Counted from the stretch's first letter, positions 6,957 through 12,808 are shown. The stretch: DNA of 64,000 bases from an uncultured Thermoleophilia bacterium (GCA_963736635.1 CAVTPK010000011.1:1698011-1762010), one strand, 5' to 3'. The notes: a model not told the origin generated them from the letters alone. Translations and numbers: made by a program.

Positions 6957-7520
6957 ATGCTGATCTTCTCGATGAGCGTCTCGGTGGACGGCTTCATCAA
7001 CGACCGCGAGGGCGCGTTCGCGTGGGGGTTCCCGAGCGACGAGCTGTTCCGCTTCCACACCGCGTCCGTGGGCGAGCTCGGGGCCTACCTGTGCGGCCGC
7101 AGGCTCTACGAGACGATGCTGGTGTGGGAGACGGATCCGTCGATGCGTGACGACGAGCTCGGGGCCGCGTTCGCCGACCTCTGGTGCGCGCTCCCGAAGG
7201 TCGTCTTCAGCCGCACGCTCGACGGCGTCCAGGGCAACGCCCGGCTCGCCGAGGGGTCGGTGGCCGAGGAGGCGGCCGCGGCGCTCGCCGCGACCGACAG
7301 GGATGTCGCGATCGGCGGCGCCGGCCTGGCGGCGGAGGCCGTCGCGCTCGGCCTGGTTGACGAGCTGCGCATGTTCCGCTACCCGGTCGTCGTCGGCGGC
7401 GGCACGCCGTTCCTGCCGCCGGTCACCGAGGACGTAGCGCTGGACCTGATCGAGACGAGGGCCTTCGGCGCGCGCGTGATCTACGAGCGCTACCGACACG
7501 TCCGCGATGACGCGAGCTGA
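6957..7520 (+). CDS. Dihydrofolate reductase family (RibD C-terminal) protein
   Basis: SVSVDGFI, GRRLYE, KVVFSRTL, GGAGLA, GLVDEL, PVVVGGG. Confidence 0.85.
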   Translation: MLIFSMSVSVDGFINDREGAFAWGFPSDELFRFHTASVGELGAYLCGRRLYETMLVWETDPSMRDDELGAAFADLWCALPKVVFSRTLDGVQGNARLAEGSVAEEAAAALAATDRDVAIGGAGLAAEAVALGLVDELRMFRYPVVVGGGTPFLPPVTEDVALDLIETRAFGARVIYERYRHVRDDAS

Positions 7521-7529
7521 GACCTCGAA

Positions 7530-7569
7530 TGGCGCGCCCAGACAAAGTGGGATCGAGGTTGGACCTGAA
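7530..7569 (-). repeat. Degenerate tRNA-3'-like/att-like repeat, copy 1
   Basis: minus strand ttcaggtccaacctcgatccc-acttt-gtctgggcgcgcca; first part resembles copy 2. Confidence 0.4.
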
Positions 7570-7713
7570 GCCCGGGACCGGGATCGGCGTGGAACCCGCC
7601 TGAGCATCACCGAGGAGGTCCTGGGCTCGCTTGCGGTTCCAACCCGGTCGGGGTGATCCAAGCCTCAACGCGCAACCGGCGAGAACATCAACACCGAGCT
7701 CACGCTCATTCGC

Positions 7714-7754
7714 CCTGCGAGACACCTCACCCGGACGGTGAGGTGTCTCGCAGG
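7714..7754. repeat. Perfect 18-bp inverted repeat (REP-like)
   Basis: cctgcgagacacctcacc-cggac-ggtgaggtgtctcgcagg. Confidence 0.8.
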
Positions 7755-7818
7755 CGAGGATCCGCGAGCCCTATGGTCCCCGGGACCAGCCCAAGCAGGT
7801 CCACGTTCAGGAGGCCGA

Positions 7819-8082
7819 ATGCCCACCGTGATCGCCACCCACGAGGTCAAGGACACCGCACACTGGCTTGCTTCGCCCCGCCGCGCGGAGATCTTCGCCA
7901 CGATCGGGGTGACGAACATCCGCACGTTCGTCAATCCTCAGAACCGCAACAGCGTCGGCCTGATCATGGACGTCCCGGACATGGACGCCATGATGGCCAT
8001 GCTGCAGTCGGACGAGGGCAAGGCCGCGGAGGAGTACGACGGCGTCCTCGCCGAGACCATCGTGATCTTCATCGAGGAGTAG
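7819..8082 (+). CDS. Small hypothetical protein (ABM/dimeric alpha-beta barrel-like)
   Basis: RBS aggagg; GC3-rich codons; HEVKD..HW..SP.R. Confidence 0.7.
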   Translation: MPTVIATHEVKDTAHWLASPRRAEIFATIGVTNIRTFVNPQNRNSVGLIMDVPDMDAMMAMLQSDEGKAAEEYDGVLAETIVIFIEE

Positions 8083-8097
8083 GCCTGGCCGCGCCTT

Positions 8098-8129
8098 CCG
8101 AGGAGGGACGCACCGAGCGCCCTCCTCGG
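8098..8129. terminator. Hairpin next to repeat copy 2
   Basis: ccgaggaggg / ccctcctcgg arms. Confidence 0.6.
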
Positions 8130-8136
8130 GGGTCAG

Positions 8137-8156
8137 GGGCCTGGCGGGATTGAAGT
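8137..8156 (-). repeat. tRNA-3'-like/att-like repeat, copy 2
   Basis: gggcctggcgggattgaagt, identical 20-mer at 9679-9698. Confidence 0.75.
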
Positions 8157-8276
8157 CGACCTGAACCTGCGGGGACGCCGACGGGTCATGGCGGGATGAG
8201 CGAGCCGCACTCGTCGGGTGTGTGGCGATGACGTGCGGCCGGGAACGAACAGGGCCTCCGACCCGCCACGGCCGAG

Positions 8277-8315
8277 AGCGGCGGGAGCCTCCATCGTCGC
8301 GAGGCTCCCGCCGCT
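8277..8315 (-). terminator. 15-bp stem hairpin downstream of gene 8325..8612
   Basis: agcggcgggagcctc / gaggctcccgccgct. Confidence 0.6.
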
Positions 8316-8324
8316 GGCCATCGG

Positions 8325-8612
8325 CTAGGCGCTGACCTGGTTGGAGACCTCGAACACCGTCTCCACGGGCGACGACGTGAAGCCGCCGTCGATGCCGGCG
8401 GCCATCCGGGGCATCAGTACCCCGTCCCGGAAGCGCTCCCAGCTCTCCTTGGAGTCGTGGATCGCGACGATCGTCCAGCCCCCCTCGGAGGGCCCGGCCG
8501 CGTGGAACACCTGACCCTCCGGGAGGCCGCCGCTCGGGTGCACGGCCCCGATCGACGCCTCGTACTGCTCCTTCGTGCCACCCGCGAACTGATGCACGAC
8601 GCCGTATGCCAT
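8325..8612 (-). CDS. Small hypothetical protein (ABM-like)
   Basis: RBS gaggagga; GGTKEQYE..LPEGQVFHAAGP..SWERF. Confidence 0.75.
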   Translation of the reverse strand: MAYGVVHQFAGGTKEQYEASIGAVHPSGGLPEGQVFHAAGPSEGGWTIVAIHDSKESWERFRDGVLMPRMAAGIDGGFTSSPVETVFEVSNQVSA

Positions 8613-8679
8613 GTCGTCCTCCTCCTCGCCGATCGGGTGCGCTCCTCGCGCTTGGTAAGACCCTCGTCCGCCCGTGGGC

Positions 8680-9063
8680 CTACTCGGGCTGGAAGAGGGC
8701 CAGGGTGTTGCCGTCCGGGTCCTTGAACCAGGCGGACGAGCCGATCCCGGGGGTCGTCGCGATGCCTTCGACGGTCTTCAGGGTGGGGAAGTCGTATTCC
8801 TCGAACACCACTCCGCGCGCGGCCAGCGCCGCCGCGTCGGCCTGGATGTCGTGCGACCAGAACCGCACCTGGGTGTGGTCGGCCACCGAGGGGGACGGCC
8901 GGCCGTAGACGAGCAGCGTGCTGCCGTCACCGCACTCGAACAGCAGGTGGTTCGTGATCGTCTCGGGAGAGAGGGTCAGGCCGACGGCGTTCTCGTAGAA
9001 GGCCCGGCTTCGCTCCAGATCCGTTGAGCAGATGACCGCCGATGCCCTGTCCATGCTCGCCAT
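8680..9063 (-). CDS. VOC/glyoxalase family protein
   Basis: DLERSRAFYE, RGVVFEEYD, AWFKDPDGNTL. Confidence 0.9.
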   Translation of the reverse strand: MASMDRASAVICSTDLERSRAFYENAVGLTLSPETITNHLLFECGDGSTLLVYGRPSPSVADHTQVRFWSHDIQADAAALAARGVVFEEYDFPTLKTVEGIATTPGIGSSAWFKDPDGNTLALFQPE

Positions 9064-9090
9064 CGATGCCTCCGTCCTCGGGTCAACTAC

Positions 9091-9131
9091 TTGTCATGCC
9101 AACTTATATGCGCCGATCTTTGGCATGTCAA
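9091..9131. promoter_or_regulatory. Two MarR-type operators TTGnCATGnCAA
   Basis: ttgtcatgccaa 9091-9102 and ttggcatgtcaa 9120-9131 between divergent VOC and MarR genes. Confidence 0.6.
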
Positions 9132-9154
9132 CAGTTTTCTCGTAGGCTACGGAC

Positions 9155-9598
9155 ATGACCGACGGCGACCACGATCGCTGGATGGGCGCCTGGCTGACAC
9201 TCGTCCGCACGCACGCGCGCCTCTGGGATCAGGTGGAGGCTCAGATGCGCCGCGACCACGGCCTGACCATCGCCCGCTACGACGTGCTGGCCAGTCTGGA
9301 CGCGGCCGGGGGGCGGCTGCGTCTGGGCGATCTCGGCGCGTCGATCGTCCTCTCGCCCTCGGGTCTCTCCAAGCTGCTCGACCGCATGCAGGCGTCGGAC
9401 CTGATCCGGCGCGAGCCCGATCCGGCCGACGCCCGCTCGACCTTCGCGGTCATCACCCCGCGTGGGCGGGCGCTCATCAAGAAGGCACGCCGGACCCACC
9501 ATGGGCTGTTGCAGCAGAGGTTCGGCGACGCGCTGGACGACCGTGACGTCGCCGATCTGATGCGGATCATGGAGCGGATCGCCGCGTCGTCCAGGTAG
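9155..9598 (+). CDS. MarR family regulator
   Basis: YDVL, LSPSGLSKLLDRM, DPADARS..ITPRG. Confidence 0.9.
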   Translation: MTDGDHDRWMGAWLTLVRTHARLWDQVEAQMRRDHGLTIARYDVLASLDAAGGRLRLGDLGASIVLSPSGLSKLLDRMQASDLIRREPDPADARSTFAVITPRGRALIKKARRTHHGLLQQRFGDALDDRDVADLMRIMERIAASSR

Positions 9599-9637
9599 AG
9601 GACGCCACGAGGCCGCCCGCTTCGTCGGCGAACCAGG

Positions 9638-9672
9638 CTCGGGGCCCCGGCGACCGCCGCCGGGGCCCCGAG
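9638..9672. terminator. 15-bp stem hairpin next to repeat copy 3
   Basis: ctcggggccccggcg / cgccggggccccgag. Confidence 0.65.
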
Positions 9673-9678
9673 ATGAGC

Positions 9679-9698
9679 GGGCCTGGCGGGATTGAAGT
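9679..9698 (-). repeat. tRNA-3'-like/att-like repeat, copy 3
   Basis: gggcctggcgggattgaagt followed by tgaacccaaacccaaacc. Confidence 0.75.
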
Positions 9699-10213
9699 TG
9701 AACCCAAACCCAAACCTCTGGGACGGGTCCGCCCATCACGATCCAGAGCGCCCCTCGTTCGATGCTAAGCGGCGGCGCTAGCTCCAATCCCGCGAACGAA
9801 CTCGATGACGTCCTTCGCGGATTCCTCGAAGGCTGCCCGGCCCTCGTTCGGTTCCTCAAAGCAGCACCGAAGCACCTCGTCGAGAAGAGCCTTCTTCGCT
9901 GGTCGCTTCGCCCGGTGGGCAGCGACCCCAAGAGCCGCATCGACCTGCCTGGCGAATCGGGCCGGGTAGTAGCGCGCGAATGCATCTGCCGAGAGAGCGA
10001 CAGTCGAAGCCGCAAGCGAAGACGTCTGTCTTCGTCGTGGTCTACGCCTCGGCGACCGGAAAGCCCTCAGAGACATCCGCGCCGACATGCATCGAAAACC
10101 GCCGAGCCCGGTTGCGGATATCGAGCGAACCAACACTGGCCAGCACCATTCTCTTGACTCGGCCCATCACGCGAAAGGAGGATCTGCCGCACACCTCGAC
10201 GACAGGTTATGCC

Positions 10214-11590
10214 ATGGTCCCGCGCGCCCCGACGACTCCACGCACCAGGCGCCGCCACCACCGTTACCTCGCCGTCGCGGCGCTCGTCCTCGGCGCCACC
10301 TTCGCGCTGAGCGGTTGCGCACAGATACGGGGCTACAACCTCCAGCAACTCGGCTCGATCGGGGACATCGACATCGTCCTCGACGGATGCGGCTCCGAGG
10401 CCGGCAATCCCGACTGTGGGCTCGGCAACTCCGGCCTCGCCTCGAACGCGACCGGGACGGGGCAGGTGCTGCTGGGCTTCGAGATCGACGCCCGTTTCGT
10501 GCCACCGGCGACGTTCGCGACAGATGTCGTCTCCGGCCACCAGCCCTTCACGGCGAGCCCGTCCTACACGGCCGAGCTGACGCGGCTCGACCCGCCCGGT
10601 CCCGGTCTCAAGTGGGCCGGGTATCTCTCAGACGCCCGCACCTACACGCCCGGCAAGCTGGTCGGGGCGCGGGTGCCGATCGCACGCCCCCTCCTTCCCG
10701 ACGGGTCTCCCAATGGGAGCACCGTCTTCGTCTCATGGCGCATCGGATCGCGAGGCGTCCTCGCGGACGCCCCGGCGACACGCCCCGTGACCTGCGGGGA
10801 CAGCCTGACGGCGATCCTTCAGTCGGACCTCACGATCTGCTCAGACGAGAGCGGCTCCGTGGGCGTCTTCGACTTCAACGACTTCGGCTTCCTGACCCCG
10901 GCGCCCGTCACGGTGCAGCCGGGGCAGACGGCGGTCATCCCGGTCACCGGCAAGCTGACGGGGCCCGCGCGTCCCGCCATCAACTTCGCGCTCAGGACCA
11001 CGACCACGGTTCCCGGTGCCACCGCCGTCACGAACGTCCCGACGCTCGTACCCCTGGGTGACAGCACGACATCCGTGACGGTATCGGTACCCGTCCCGCC
11101 GGGGACCGCACCCGGCACCTACGCGGTGACGCTCAGCGGCACCCTTCCAAGCGGCGAGACCCGCGCGACGACAGGGGCCGTGATCGTCGCCGGGCCGGGC
11201 GCCGGCATCGTCGCCGGGCCGGGCGGAGCGCCGGGCGGCGGCACCGCCGCCGCGCCGCTGTGCGCCGGACGACCCGCAACCGTCACCGGGACCGCCCGCC
11301 CGGACCGGCTGAAGGGCACCGCGGGCCCCGACGTGATCGCCGGGCTGGGCGGTGCCGATGTGATCGACGGCCTGGGCGGCGCCGATGTCCTCTGCGGCGG
11401 CCCGGGGGCCGACCTCCTGCGGGGCGGCGGAGGTCGCGACGTCCTGGTCGGCGGAGCCGGCCCCGACCGCCTGCTGGGTGGGCTCGGGCCGGATCGCCTT
11501 CTGGGCGGACCCGGCGCCGACCGCCTGCTCGGCGGCCGCGGCCTCGACGTCCTGATCGGCGGGGCAGGCCGGAACGTCCGCATCCAATAG
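10214..11590 (+). CDS. Secreted/lipoprotein with C-terminal RTX (hemolysin-type Ca-binding) nonapeptide repeats
   Basis: Signal with LSGC lipobox; Ig-like middle region; tandem GGxGxDxL repeats. Confidence 0.8.
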
Positions 11591-11738
11591 CCTCGGCAGG
11601 GGCACGGGGTCGGGCCGACCACCGGCGCGCCGAGGGGCGAGAGGGACTGCGCCCCGCCCGGGGCGCCTTCGCCCGGCTCGGGCACGCGTCGGGGTCTGCC
11701 GCCATCCAAGGCCGAACTGAGCGGCCCGACCAGATCAG

Positions 11739-11826
11739 CGGAGGGGGAGGGATTCGAACCCTCGGCCGGGGGTTGCCCGGCAACGGTTTTCAAGACCGTC
11801 GCATTCGACCGCTCTGCCACCCCTCC
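11739..11826 (-). tRNA. tRNA-Ser(TGA)
   Basis: ggaggggtggcagagcgg..acggt-cttgaaa-accgt, long variable arm, ggttcgaatcc. Confidence 0.95.
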
Positions 11827-11885
11827 GCGCCGCGCCCGCGCGCCCTCACCGGGCGGGGGCCCGGTCGCTACGATACGGCCCGCGC

Positions 11886-11975
11886 GGAGAGGTGGCCGAG
11901 TGGCTGAAGGCATCCGCCTGCTAAGCGGGTAATCGGGGTTAACCTGATTCGAGGGTTCGAATCCCTCCCTCTCCG
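11886..11975 (+). tRNA. tRNA-Ser(GCT)
   Basis: ggagaggtggccgagtgg..ccgc-ctgctaa-gcgg, long variable arm, ggttcgaatcc. Confidence 0.95.
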
Positions 11976-12127
11976 TTCCTCCGCGCCCGGGGCGGCGGCC
12001 CACGTCGCGCCGGCGCGCACGCAGCGGCCGGGCCAGCTCCACCAGGAGACCCTCGGGCCGCGCGCCGGGCCGCCCGCCCGCCTGGCATCCTCCGCTGCGA
12101 CGTTCGGCGGGTGGGCTCGCGGAGGGC

Positions 12128-12808
12128 GTGAGCGGGGTGGACGTGGAGGAGTACGAGAACGAGCCGGGTTTCGTCGGCGAGGCGCGCTGGCCGATGGCCA
12201 GCGCCGTCCTGGCGGCGATCCTGCTCACCTTCCTGCTGCCCGCGGACGTGCGGATCTTCCCGGTGTGGGTGATGCCCTCCGTCGAGGCCCTGCTGCTGAT
12301 CGCGCTGGTGGCCGGCGACCCGGGGGAGATCTCGCGCCGCTCGCGCCAGTTGCGCGGGCTGTCGATCGTGCTCGTCGCCCTGCTGCTGCTCGCGTCGCTG
12401 CTGTCGACGATCCTGCTGGTGGCGTCCCTGATCGAGGGCGGCGAAAAGCTCGATACGGCCGACTCGCTGCTGGCCGCCGGCGCGGTGGTGTGGGGCTCCA
12501 ACGTGCTGGCCTTCGCCCTGCTGTTCTGGGAGCTCGACTGCGGCGGGGCGGCCGAGCGGGCCCATCGCATGCCCCCGCACCCGGACTTCGCCTTCGTCCA
12601 GCAGATCAACCCGGACCTCGCGCCGCCGGGCTGGCGGCCGCGATTCGTCGATTACCTCTACCTGTCGATCACCAACTCCATCGCGCTCAGCCCCACCGAC
12701 ACCATGCCGATGACCCCGTGGGCGAAGAGCGCGATGGCCGCGCAGTCGATCATCTCCCTCCTGATCATCGGCCTGGTCATCGCCCGGGCGGTCAACGTCC
12801 TCAACTAG
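12128..12808 (+). CDS. DUF1345 family membrane protein
   Basis: FALLFWELDCGG, PDFAF, WRPRFVDYLY, SPTDTMPMT. Confidence 0.8.
   Translation: MSGVDVEEYENEPGFVGEARWPMASAVLAAILLTFLLPADVRIFPVWVMPSVEALLLIALVAGDPGEISRRSRQLRGLSIVLVALLLLASLLSTILLVASLIEGGEKLDTADSLLAAGAVVWGSNVLAFALLFWELDCGGAAERAHRMPPHPDFAFVQQINPDLAPPGWRPRFVDYLYLSITNSIALSPTDTMPMTPWAKSAMAAQSIISLLIIGLVIARAVNVLN

Follow-up and report, generated by a model that had tools for sequence, protein, structure and literature searches.

In staphylococci, a single conserved gene, rlmH (orfX), receives SCC elements at its 3′ end through the CcrAB/C serine recombinases, and SCC arrays include pseudo-SCC units that lack a recombinase. Each SCC unit has short direct repeats of integration-site sequence at its ends, unlike the units described here. 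The ssrA-specific islands of Dehalococcoides carry a CcrB-like serine recombinase, DsiB, whose gene overlaps attL at its 3′ end, with the open reading frame running into the RNA gene. These islands stand in tandem behind one small RNA gene and have a conserved element-side motif next to the distal junction; some units without an integration module have been read as cis-mobilisable or fixed (PMC3146451). For large serine recombinases (LSRs) in general, the outer (zinc-ribbon) motif lies 5 bp further from the centre in attP than in attB half-sites (PMC3783163). Next to tRNA genes of Prochlorococcus, repeated insertion pushes the units of tycheposon islands outward, and many of these are integrase-less remnants (10.1101/2020.12.28.424599).

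The locus compared with these systems lies in a window of 64,000 nucleotides (1.698–1.762 Mb of contig C11) from the 3.18-Mb genome of an uncultured Thermoleophilia bacterium. Three integrations at the tRNA-Ser(TGA) 3′ end, by elements that used an LSR, have probably left a fossil stack here, in which a repeated 36-nt site, M, would be the attP-type arm left at attR.

A conserved site behind serine tRNA genes

An exact 20-mer, GGGCCTGGCGGGATTGAAGT on the + strand, occurs at 8137–8156 and 9679–9698 of the window, as an earlier note on this DNA had reported, with no third copy there at up to 3 mismatches. The chance expectation is none (0 of 100 shuffles held any match), and the two copies are also the only ones in the genome. 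Alignment of related copies shows that the 20-mer is the core of M (consensus AGCGGGCCTNGCGGGATTGAAGTTGAACCYRAACC), which is conserved over 36 nt and sharply bounded, with flanks that are unrelated among copies. The GGTT-rich tract that had been noticed beside each copy, reading GTYGAMC...AACC after the 20-mer on the + strand, belongs to the same 36 nt. Each 20-mer is also preceded on the + strand, at a gap of 6–7 nt, by the strong GC hairpin of its own that the note had described; the sequence of such hairpins is not conserved and many copies of M lack them.

The genome holds three copies of M, all at this locus and all co-oriented (Table 1). M2 fits the family consensus (PWM 63 bits; nhmmer E 2e-12), and M1 scores 16 bits (E 9.6e-07). 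A third copy had been proposed at 7530–7569, ending in CCA: a degenerate M is indeed present, matching GGGATTGAAGTTGAACC with 3 mismatches (PWM 3.4 bits against a control maximum of -1.9) and orthologous to the intact M of L032 and L033 (genomes G013 and G008), which share its right flank, whereas the part with CCA (7530–7548) is the 3′ flank of a RibD_C gene, which G002 has too. Scores in the window fall with distance from the tRNA (63, 16 and 3 bits); an age gradient of decay along arrays fits the window, does not hold as a general rule, and was dropped.

Table 1. Sites, modules and tRNA genes at the locus (positions in the window)
Feature	Position	Strand	Description
M3	7549–7573	+	Degenerate remnant, right two-thirds of M, GGGATCGAGGTTGGACCTGAAGCCC; outer end of module 1
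Module 1	7574–8132	+	87-aa gene 7819–8082 (no Pfam family); hairpin h1 8098–8129
M1	8134–8169	+	Slightly decayed M with 1-nt deletion; outer end of module 2
Module 2	8170–9675	mixed	Three genes (next rows); hairpin h2 9638–9672
95-aa gene	8325–8612	-	Module 2
VOC/glyoxalase gene (Pfam)	8680–9063	-	Module 2
MarR gene (Pfam)	9155–9598	+	Module 2
M2	9676–9712	+	Intact M, putatively the attP-type arm P kept at attR; bounds module 3 on its outer side
Module 3	9713–11737	mixed	~350 nt of lower-GC DNA with doubtful ORF 9765–10136 (-), then RTX gene
RTX-repeat lipoprotein gene	10214–11590	+	Module 3; Pfam HemolysinCabind
tRNA-Ser(TGA)	11738–11826	-	ARAGORN, Rfam; last ~23 nt (11738–11760) are the putative attB-type half-site T
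tRNA-Ser(GCT)	11885–11976	+	Divergent partner; second insertion point in some relatives

The earlier note is right on the sizes and gene contents of the modules, and the window holds no recombinase gene, in line with the note's failure to recognise an integrase there. An Rfam scan of 7000–12500 at E up to 10 returned the two tRNAs and noise, nothing else. The insertions appear to fall at the 3′ boundary of tRNA-Ser(TGA); both serine tRNAs of L130 are followed by M arrays, oriented as mirror images.

Among the genomes and metagenome contigs searched, true copies of M are restricted to Miltoncostaeaceae-type Thermoleophilia. One match on a viral contig was a chance match, and those on genome contigs from outside the Thermoleophilia were a conserved coding 19-mer. 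M almost always lies downstream of, and co-oriented with, a tRNA-Ser gene, often in arrays with a spacing of 0.1–6 kb; the repeats in the window had likewise been noted to face the same way as tRNA-Ser. A co-oriented tRNA-Ser 3′ end was found within 5 kb on the tRNA-ward side of M for 18 of 24 copies, versus 2 of 26 on the other side, and 28 of 30 adjacent M pairs are co-oriented. REP-like scatter in both orientations, which would have spoken against the earlier interpretation, is not seen.

The cargo between M sites includes nitrite reductase, oxidase subunits, metal efflux, methyltransferases, regulators and defence genes, a range which implies that the hot spot shapes the ecology of these bacteria.

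Site interchange, recombinase elements and half-site geometry

A module that adjoins M in one genome can adjoin the tRNA-Ser 3′ end (T) in another, with the junction at the identical nucleotide. The 87-aa module adjoins M1 in the window, the intact tRNA-Ser gene in G012 and, in G013:C1, a 3′ fragment of tRNA-Ser, M1 sitting exactly in the slot that the tRNA-Ser 3′ end holds in those two genomes. The RTX module adjoins T in the window and M in G006 (gene and 3′ flank 88.5% identical), and one flank type adjoins T in G047 and M in another genus with identical spacing. Breakpoints between genomes fall exactly at the repeats, the outcome that the earlier note had proposed to look for, and its view that the repeats bound modules of a recombinase-less array at a tRNA is supported, with the array growing from tRNA-Ser.

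Relatives carry LSR elements that end in M. In G001 the order is tRNA-Ser(CGA), LSR, ImmA-like peptidase, XRE regulator, Replic_Relax and coupling-protein genes, and then M, which stands 16.3 kb away in the right orientation and closes the far end of a 16-kb element of 65% GC (flank 71%). The LSR gene adjoins the tRNA gene and encodes Resolvase (PF00239, 1.7e-32), Recombinase (PF07508, 2.6e-12) and Zn_ribbon_recom (PF13408, 4.4e-11) domains. An element of ~3 kb in G060 consists of LSR, a single cargo gene and M, and a decayed one in G048 reads M, three ORFs, an LSR C-terminal fragment and tRNA-Ser(GGA). All three have hybrid ends, with attL formed by the LSR end and T and attR by the old flank and M, and with no long direct repeat common to both. 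G042 also has an LSR. What remains of an LSR C-terminus directly adjoins T at two loci of G007 and in G001 and G028, and directly adjoins M in L080, a contig of genus g19. The LSR-end motif stands beside M in only 7 of 59 copies and beside T in only 5 of 62; some LSR-end/M junctions in g19 have a spacing of 23 nt, not 11–12 nt. No homologue or remnant of this LSR was found in the window or its genome, and no synteny was detected between the window and the G001 flank beyond M; homology of the sites, together with the three elements in other genera, suggests the link of the window to the LSR.

Counted from a C shared by both sites, GGGATT occupies positions 11–16 in M and in T, and TGAACCC lies at 17–23 in T versus 22–28 in M, that is, 5 bp farther out. 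This shift is the published relation between attP and attB half-sites, and M is therefore read as attP-type. The dinucleotide before the shared C is AA or AG, the same two variants in M and T. The two arms of attL form an imperfect palindrome of 46 bp about the tRNA 3′ boundary, and each has TTCGAACCC at positions 15–23. Against the 5-bp rule for attP, the arm at the LSR end (P′) has attB-like spacing, so that the proposed attP would be asymmetric.

In the mechanism that we propose, the attP of a circular element would join two arms, the LSR gene's 3′ end (P′) and M (P), and the chromosomal attB would consist of the last ~23 nt of tRNA-Ser (arm B, T) and any downstream DNA (B′). Crossover, presumably LSR-catalysed and at the tRNA 3′ boundary, would leave the tRNA intact with the LSR gene adjoining it (attL, T.P′) and, at the far end, would bring M up to the DNA that formerly lay downstream (attR, M.B′). 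With every further insertion, older units would move outward, which would explain why M copies are co-oriented and separate modules, and the need for one set of recombinase domains to bind M as well as T would give M its likeness to a tRNA 3′ end. The hairpins adjacent to M may be terminators that once stood behind the tRNA. In this genome the LSR and the other backbone genes would have gone, leaving one M intact and two decaying, and the small modules may be what decay has left of larger elements; the array calls for a recombinase, either trans-acting or lost in the meantime. Weighing against such a stack, most modules bear no trace of a past LSR, and the model gives no reason why an LSR would be lost precisely as far as the tRNA boundary. 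Moreover, canonical LSRs recombine only attP with attB, so that repeated insertion at an occupied attL would need relaxed specificity or another route.

Alternative origins of the array

It is possible, though we think it unlikely, that units of 0.3–2 kb without a recombinase are themselves mobile, being excised from and inserted at the tRNA-Ser end or a resident M by an LSR supplied in trans, with the modules of the window captured singly. Such a counterpart of integron cassettes, run by a serine recombinase that needs little more than the M arm, would account for cassettes of 0.1–0.8 kb that stand between intact M copies, and for the 87-aa cassette, present in at least eight genomes and flanked by M on both sides, in tandem, in metagenome contig L141. 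Cassettes with orf186 (0.8 kb) and SDR (1.7 kb) are 98.4–98.5% identical between different arrays with different neighbours, the orf186 block starting at the left edge of its own M and the near-identity of the SDR block ending at the left edge of the next M. No scanned cassette ORF gave a recombinase above the Pfam cut-off, and most M and T flanks have no LSR remnant. However, LSRs normally need a full two-arm attP, and most cassettes lack the P′ arm at the tRNA-proximal end. Deletion and homologous exchange between arrays, with M and the tRNA as anchors, could yield the same pattern, and the VOC-MarR pair occurs without M in two close relatives (G002 and G010), 3–5 kb from tRNA-Ser(TGA). No circle or excision junction was found in four sequencing runs of short metagenome contigs, which match at most 0.20 of the sequence words of the locus. 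If such cassettes do move, they would form a functional integron analogue for Actinomycetota, built on a serine rather than a tyrosine recombinase; the Actinomycetota genomes sampled in one survey were without complete integrons (PMC4889954).

The earlier note had instead taken the repeats as 3′ fragments of a donor tRNA, left as att scars between cassettes by tyrosine integrases that target the T-loop, an origin that we regard as very improbable. Tyrosine integrases overlapping tRNA 3′ ends are common in the family, with related enzymes at Gly, Arg, Ala, Val and Pro tRNAs, and relatives do carry true tRNA-Ser 3′ fragments (29–81 nt) as direct repeats at the same hot spot; these form a junction class separate from M, and M/T hybrid sites do not exist. 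No tRNA or tmRNA ends like M, as judged by whole-genome ARAGORN, by Rfam for tmRNA, and, in 101 relatives, by sequence patterns that either required or omitted a canonical T-loop. Among 400 Actinomycetota genomes the closest tRNA, a tRNA-Arg(CCG) of other families, differs by one substitution and one indel and was judged weak, and the likeness of M to tRNA ends is generic (12–14 of 23 positions for many tRNAs). The co-occurring tyrosine recombinase that the scar model called for was not found: PF00589 is absent near M arrays or tRNA-Ser in six genomes (G000, G008, G013, G036, G039 and G050), and tblastn with the three tyrosine recombinases of the genome, which lie at 1.15–1.18 Mb of contig C11, gave one marginal match in 1.1 Mb of loci, the integrase of a tRNA-Gly element and the single such enzyme near an M. 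A recombinase-less array of gene modules at a tRNA thus stands from the earlier proposal, and its mechanism of tyrosine integrases and tRNA scars does not, the linked enzyme being an LSR.

Least probable of all is that M is a dispersed regulatory, RNA or REP-like element or an integron attC unrelated to insertion at tRNA-Ser: GTTGAAC in M fits the integron core GTTRRRY, M contains tandem TTGAAS hexamers and a hairpin often precedes it, but M is confined to one locus in this genome and fixed in orientation relative to tRNA-Ser across the family, it folds no better than shuffles on either strand, shows no covariation by RNAalifold on 12 extended, aligned copies and has no Rfam match, and the integron integrase (TIGR02249) exceeds the 265-bit cut-off in 0 of 61 family genomes (best 60 bits).

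Significance and comparison with known systems

A stack of LSR integrations at tRNA-Ser would explain a hypervariable spot in the genomes of a little-studied, deep actinobacterial lineage and names the likely enzyme, with candidate attP-type and attB-type half-sites given at nucleotide resolution. The LSR and its sites would make a natural, directly testable pair that targets a tRNA and whose half-sites show a clear shift of 5 bp. Integrase-less cassette arrays at tRNA genes can, on this evidence, be products of serine recombinases with no tRNA-derived repeat, so that island finders seeking tRNA direct repeats would miss them.

Much like the DsiB islands of Dehalococcoides, the LSR ORF of G001 reads through tRNA-Ser, units are in tandem, an element-side motif lies at the distal junction, and some units have no integration module. 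The target here is tRNA-Ser (four isoacceptors) rather than tmRNA, and we place the crossover exactly at the 3′ boundary, which would leave no copy of the RNA gene end, with the 36-nt arm M alone marking the distal junction. A second small serine recombinase is not seen here, and many units are far smaller (0.1–2 kb). With phage-type large serine integrases (A118/LI, Bxb1, phiC31; PMC3783163) the LSR shares its Resolvase, Recombinase and zinc ribbon domains, hybrid attL and attR without a long repeat, and an outer motif that in the host site is 5 bp closer to the centre. Unlike phages, the present elements are ICE/IME-like or minimal islands; strict attP × attB selectivity does not predict their stacking at one site, and the spacing of the P′ arm appears attB-like. 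SCC differs in host phylum and target. Tycheposon islands likewise grow outward beside a tRNA gene and hold integrase-less remnants, but use tyrosine recombinases and leave partial tRNAs, neither of which occurs at M units. CALIN (PMC4889954) have the same look of a cassette array with sites between single genes, although integrons need IntI and a folded attC, neither of which is seen here. On the proposed reading, the M arrays add one more case to an established mode of genomic-island construction.

The repeat family M and its relation to tRNA ends

Sequence search of the window recovered the two exact 20-mer copies claimed in the earlier note and no further copy within 3 mismatches, while none of 100 shuffled sequences held a match (0/100). 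These two are also the only copies in the whole 3.18-Mb genome, which is made up of a 3.10-Mb contig and ten small contigs. A GC hairpin lies 6-7 nt ahead of each copy, differing between the copies as had been described, and a GTYGAMC...AACC tract follows both. Of the third copy that had been proposed at 7530-7569, the larger part stands as a degenerate M element, the family to which both 20-mers belong, while its 'CCA' part is the 3′ flank of a RibD_C gene, common to the relative G002. The gene contents of the three modules (the first with an 87-aa gene and hairpin h1; the second with a 95-aa gene, VOC and MarR; the third with an RTX lipoprotein gene) match the earlier description. CheckM-type completeness of the genome is given as just 55% despite the 3.1-Mb contig.

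Among 101 relatives searched, the M motif is present in about a quarter, with a maximum of 8 copies per genome; the reversed pattern, used as a control, gave almost no matches. In anchored copies, conservation begins 3 nt ahead of GGGCC and ends ~33 nt past it, between unrelated flanks, which gives the 36-nt family-wide consensus AGCGGGCCTNGCGGGATTGAAGTTGAACCYRAACC. When 185,579 species genomes and JGI metagenomes were scanned with exact patterns, true copies were confined to Thermoleophilia/Miltoncostaeaceae MAGs and contigs, save one contig binned as Gemmatimonadota; the remaining matches are a coding 19-mer and were rejected as M. The element has neither a structure of its own nor an Rfam match, and such elements are unmentioned in the literature on this lineage.

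On contigs of the genus g19 and related ones (L078, L080, L092, L095, L122, L129, L131, L140), a semi-conserved spacer of ~75 nt, CTGCAAATCGGCTTGTT..., comes after M, and beyond it stands a second partial copy, M′ (GTGGGACTCAAGTTGAACCCC; alignment A2). A similar CTGCAAA motif adjoins tRNA-Ser 3′ fragments in G006, G018 and G008. Both M′ and the CTGCAAA motifs may be accessory binding sites.

The repeats had been read as tRNA 3′ fragments, a reading that did not survive the donor searches. An M-like end is absent from all 55 ARAGORN calls of the genome and from its tmRNA, and no tRNA ending like M was found in the 101 relatives, searched with and without the canonical 7-nt T-loop. The nearest tRNA end in 400 Actinomycetota genomes, that of tRNA-Arg(CCG) in other families, is one substitution plus one indel off. 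Since many tRNA 3′ ends share 12-14 of 23 positions with M, the likeness is generic. The tmRNA was missed by ARAGORN and found by Rfam at 100 bits; its 3′ end is without the canonical T-loop sequence.

Features of the window and of compared loci
Feature	Location	Strand	Remarks
M3	window 7549-7573		degenerate, right two-thirds of M
RibD_C 3′ flank	window 7530-7548		'CCA' part
Inverted repeat	window 7714-7754		perfect, 18 bp, 5-nt loop; upstream of the 87-aa gene, within module 1
M1	window 8134-8169	+	20-mer at 8137-8156
M2	window 9676-9712	+	20-mer at 9679-9698
tRNA-Ser(TGA)	window 11738-11826	-	its 3′ end is T
tRNA-Ser(GCT)	beside tRNA-Ser(TGA)		divergent
tmRNA	G000:C11:264153-264521		window's genome
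M, spacer and M′	L078:67-229		g19-type contig
Inverted segment	L124 7325-9013		same region in L135
Fragment-bounded island	L033 10271-14154		G008
tRNA-Arg(TCT)-type 3′ ends	G053:C47:15-191		contig start
G001 element	beside tRNA-Ser(CGA)		order from the tRNA: LSR gene; ImmA-like peptidase, XRE regulator, Replic_Relax and coupling-protein genes; M
G060 element			LSR, HD-LuxR gene, M; ~3 kb total
G048 element	at tRNA-Ser(GGA)		M, three ORFs, LSR C-terminal fragment, tRNA-Ser(GGA)

Arrangement at tRNA-Ser genes and module breakpoints

We mapped M, tRNA-Ser 3′ ends (T, the last ~23 nt) and ORFs across ~90 loci. With M placed on the + strand, a tRNA-Ser (TGA, CGA, GGA or GCT), whole or as a 3′ fragment, lies on the - strand 0.3-8 kb rightward. 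This is so for 18 of 24 distinct M copies with at least 5 kb of sequence there, against 2 of 26 on the opposite side. Neighbouring M copies are co-oriented in 28 of 30 pairs, at spacings from 94 nt to 6 kb, and the two exceptions lie at divergent tRNA-Ser pairs or an apparent inversion. The longest array has four copies (L134).

The claim that the repeats bound the modules of an array at tRNA-Ser is supported by breakpoints between genomes, which fall at M edges. In the window the 87-aa module with h1 ends at ...gggtcag directly before M1; at the same nucleotide it meets an intact tRNA-Ser in G012 and a ~30-nt tRNA-Ser fragment in G013:C1. Similarly, the RTX gene with its 3′ flank (88.5% identical) adjoins the tRNA in the window and M in G006, and a flank type ending in GTTATCCACAGGA lies next to T in G047 and, with the spacing unchanged, next to M in another genus. 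Within g19, copies of an orf186 cassette (98.4% identity) and of an SDR cassette (98.5%) recur in separate arrays beside unlike neighbours. The left edge of its own M is exactly where the orf186 block starts; the SDR block stays near-identical up to the left edge of the following M, at which 3 of 12 bases differ compared with 1.5% inside the block. As the close relatives G002, G010, G015 and G003 carry quite different genes near tRNA-Ser(TGA), with no M within ~15 kb of it, the locus is a hot spot.

Three further arrangements were observed. Left flanks of M (L071, L078, L092, L062, L064) and of the G047 tRNA-Ser (L058) carry a further motif conserved at cassette ends, ACCAGGGGA-N9-10-GTTATCCACAGG or GTTGTCCACAGG, 4-5 nt ahead of M or T; it holds a perfect DnaA-box-like nonamer (TTATCCACA / TTGTCCACA) and may be another P′-type arm or have a replication role. 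In locus L124, M, a methyltransferase gene and a tRNA-Ser fragment are inverted beside an oppositely oriented M, itself 10 nt from the tRNA-Ser fragment, in what looks like an inversion between inverted tRNA-Ser ends. Finally, in a contig from metagenome run X5 the end of an M2-like site is joined to the sequence 3′ of a tRNA-Ser(GCT)-like gene, the two lying on opposite strands (window 9710 / 11983). This junction may reflect M almost directly behind tRNA-Ser in a relative, a weak indication because the shorter side is only 35 nt.

Recombinases, site logic and cargo

The array had been attributed to a trans-acting recombinase, on the pattern of tyrosine integrases. No recombinase above the Pfam cut-off was found among the scanned ORFs in and around arrays, tyrosine recombinases are distant from all arrays, and none of 61 family genomes has an integron integrase. 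In the revised mechanism, a large serine recombinase (LSR) takes the place of the tyrosine integrase. The sole integrase near an M is part of a tRNA-Gly element and was set aside.

One of the PF07508 matches lies next to the tRNA-Ser(CGA/GGA) pair in the relative G001. Its ORF, with Resolvase, Recombinase and Zn_ribbon_recom domains, reads into tRNA-Ser(CGA), and an M copy lies 16.3 kb from the tRNA in matching orientation; GC content is 65% in the element versus 71% in the flank beyond M. LSR C-terminal remnants (49-77% identity) directly adjoin T in G007 (two loci), G001 and G028, and another directly adjoins M on contig L080. GGGTTCGAACGT, a motif that recurs in the flanks, is the coding sequence of the LSR's last residues, and this LSR-end motif is next to only 7 of the 59 M copies and 5 of the 62 T copies. 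Most units are without LSR trace, and the window's genome has no LSR homologue. Homologues of 44-55% identity adjoin tRNA-Glu(TTC), tRNA-Lys(TTT), tRNA-Val(TAC) and tRNA-Ala(CGC) (L202 of G042, L203 of G046, L178 of G119, L174 of G028), which suggests that the LSR clade diversified over tRNA 3′ ends.

The sites themselves can be read in the same terms. The LSR end and T together make up attL, an imperfect palindrome of 46 bp with its centre at the tRNA 3′ boundary; its arms match at 13 of 23 positions and both have TTCGAACCC at positions 15-23. This puts the crossover at the boundary, in agreement with the breakpoints from genome comparison. With numbering from a shared C, GGGATT occupies 11-16 in both M and T, whereas TGAACCC lies at 17-23 in T and 22-28 in M; M and T each come in an AA and an AG variant just before this C. 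A 5-bp outward shift is the established relation between attP and attB half-sites of serine integrases (PMC3783163). From the shift and the common variants it follows, on sequence grounds, that M is a putative attP-type P arm and T a putative attB-type B arm. One protein would read both M and T, hence the tRNA-end look of M, and the hairpins beside M would be terminators formerly downstream of the tRNA.

Insertion into an occupied site is not known from canonical LSRs. Stacking of units could come about through relaxed LSR specificity, as is the case for the recombinases of SCC elements, through decay of units by deletion and subsequent reshuffling via homologous exchange, or through mobilisation of LSR-less cassettes in trans.

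Pfam scans of ORFs within and near the arrays showed VOC, MarR, RTX, CDF/HMA efflux, methyltransferases, SDR, GMC oxidoreductase, GGDEF-EAL, cytochrome cd1 nitrite reductase, oxidase subunits, KaiC-like ATPase and PLD plus helicase, among others. No integrase is present either in islands delimited by true tRNA-Ser 3′ fragments of 55-81 nt (L033; L035 of G002; L038 of G013:C13); one carries KaiC-like ATPase, MerR-response regulator and STAS genes, and another a PLD-like nuclease and helicase that look like a defence system. The lineage also has a separate system of the classical kind for building islands, namely a tyrosine integrase family found in 38 of 111 family genomes (L142-L166: G036, G054, G031, G013, G009, G016 and others), whose 3′ ends overlap those of tRNA-Gly(CCC), Arg(CCG), Ala, Val and Pro genes. 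In G053, three tRNA-Arg(TCT)-type 3′ ends at 78-nt spacing may be a tandem of att fragments.

Comparison with known systems

Tycheposons, like integrons/CALINs, offer an analogy of form only. The closest described system is the ssrA islands of Dehalococcoides, in which the gene for a CcrB-like LSR invariably overlaps attL, islands lie in tandem and some are without an integration module (PMC3146451). In contrast to those islands, the target here is tRNA-Ser, the putative crossover at the gene boundary would leave no RNA-gene repeat, and many units are very small.
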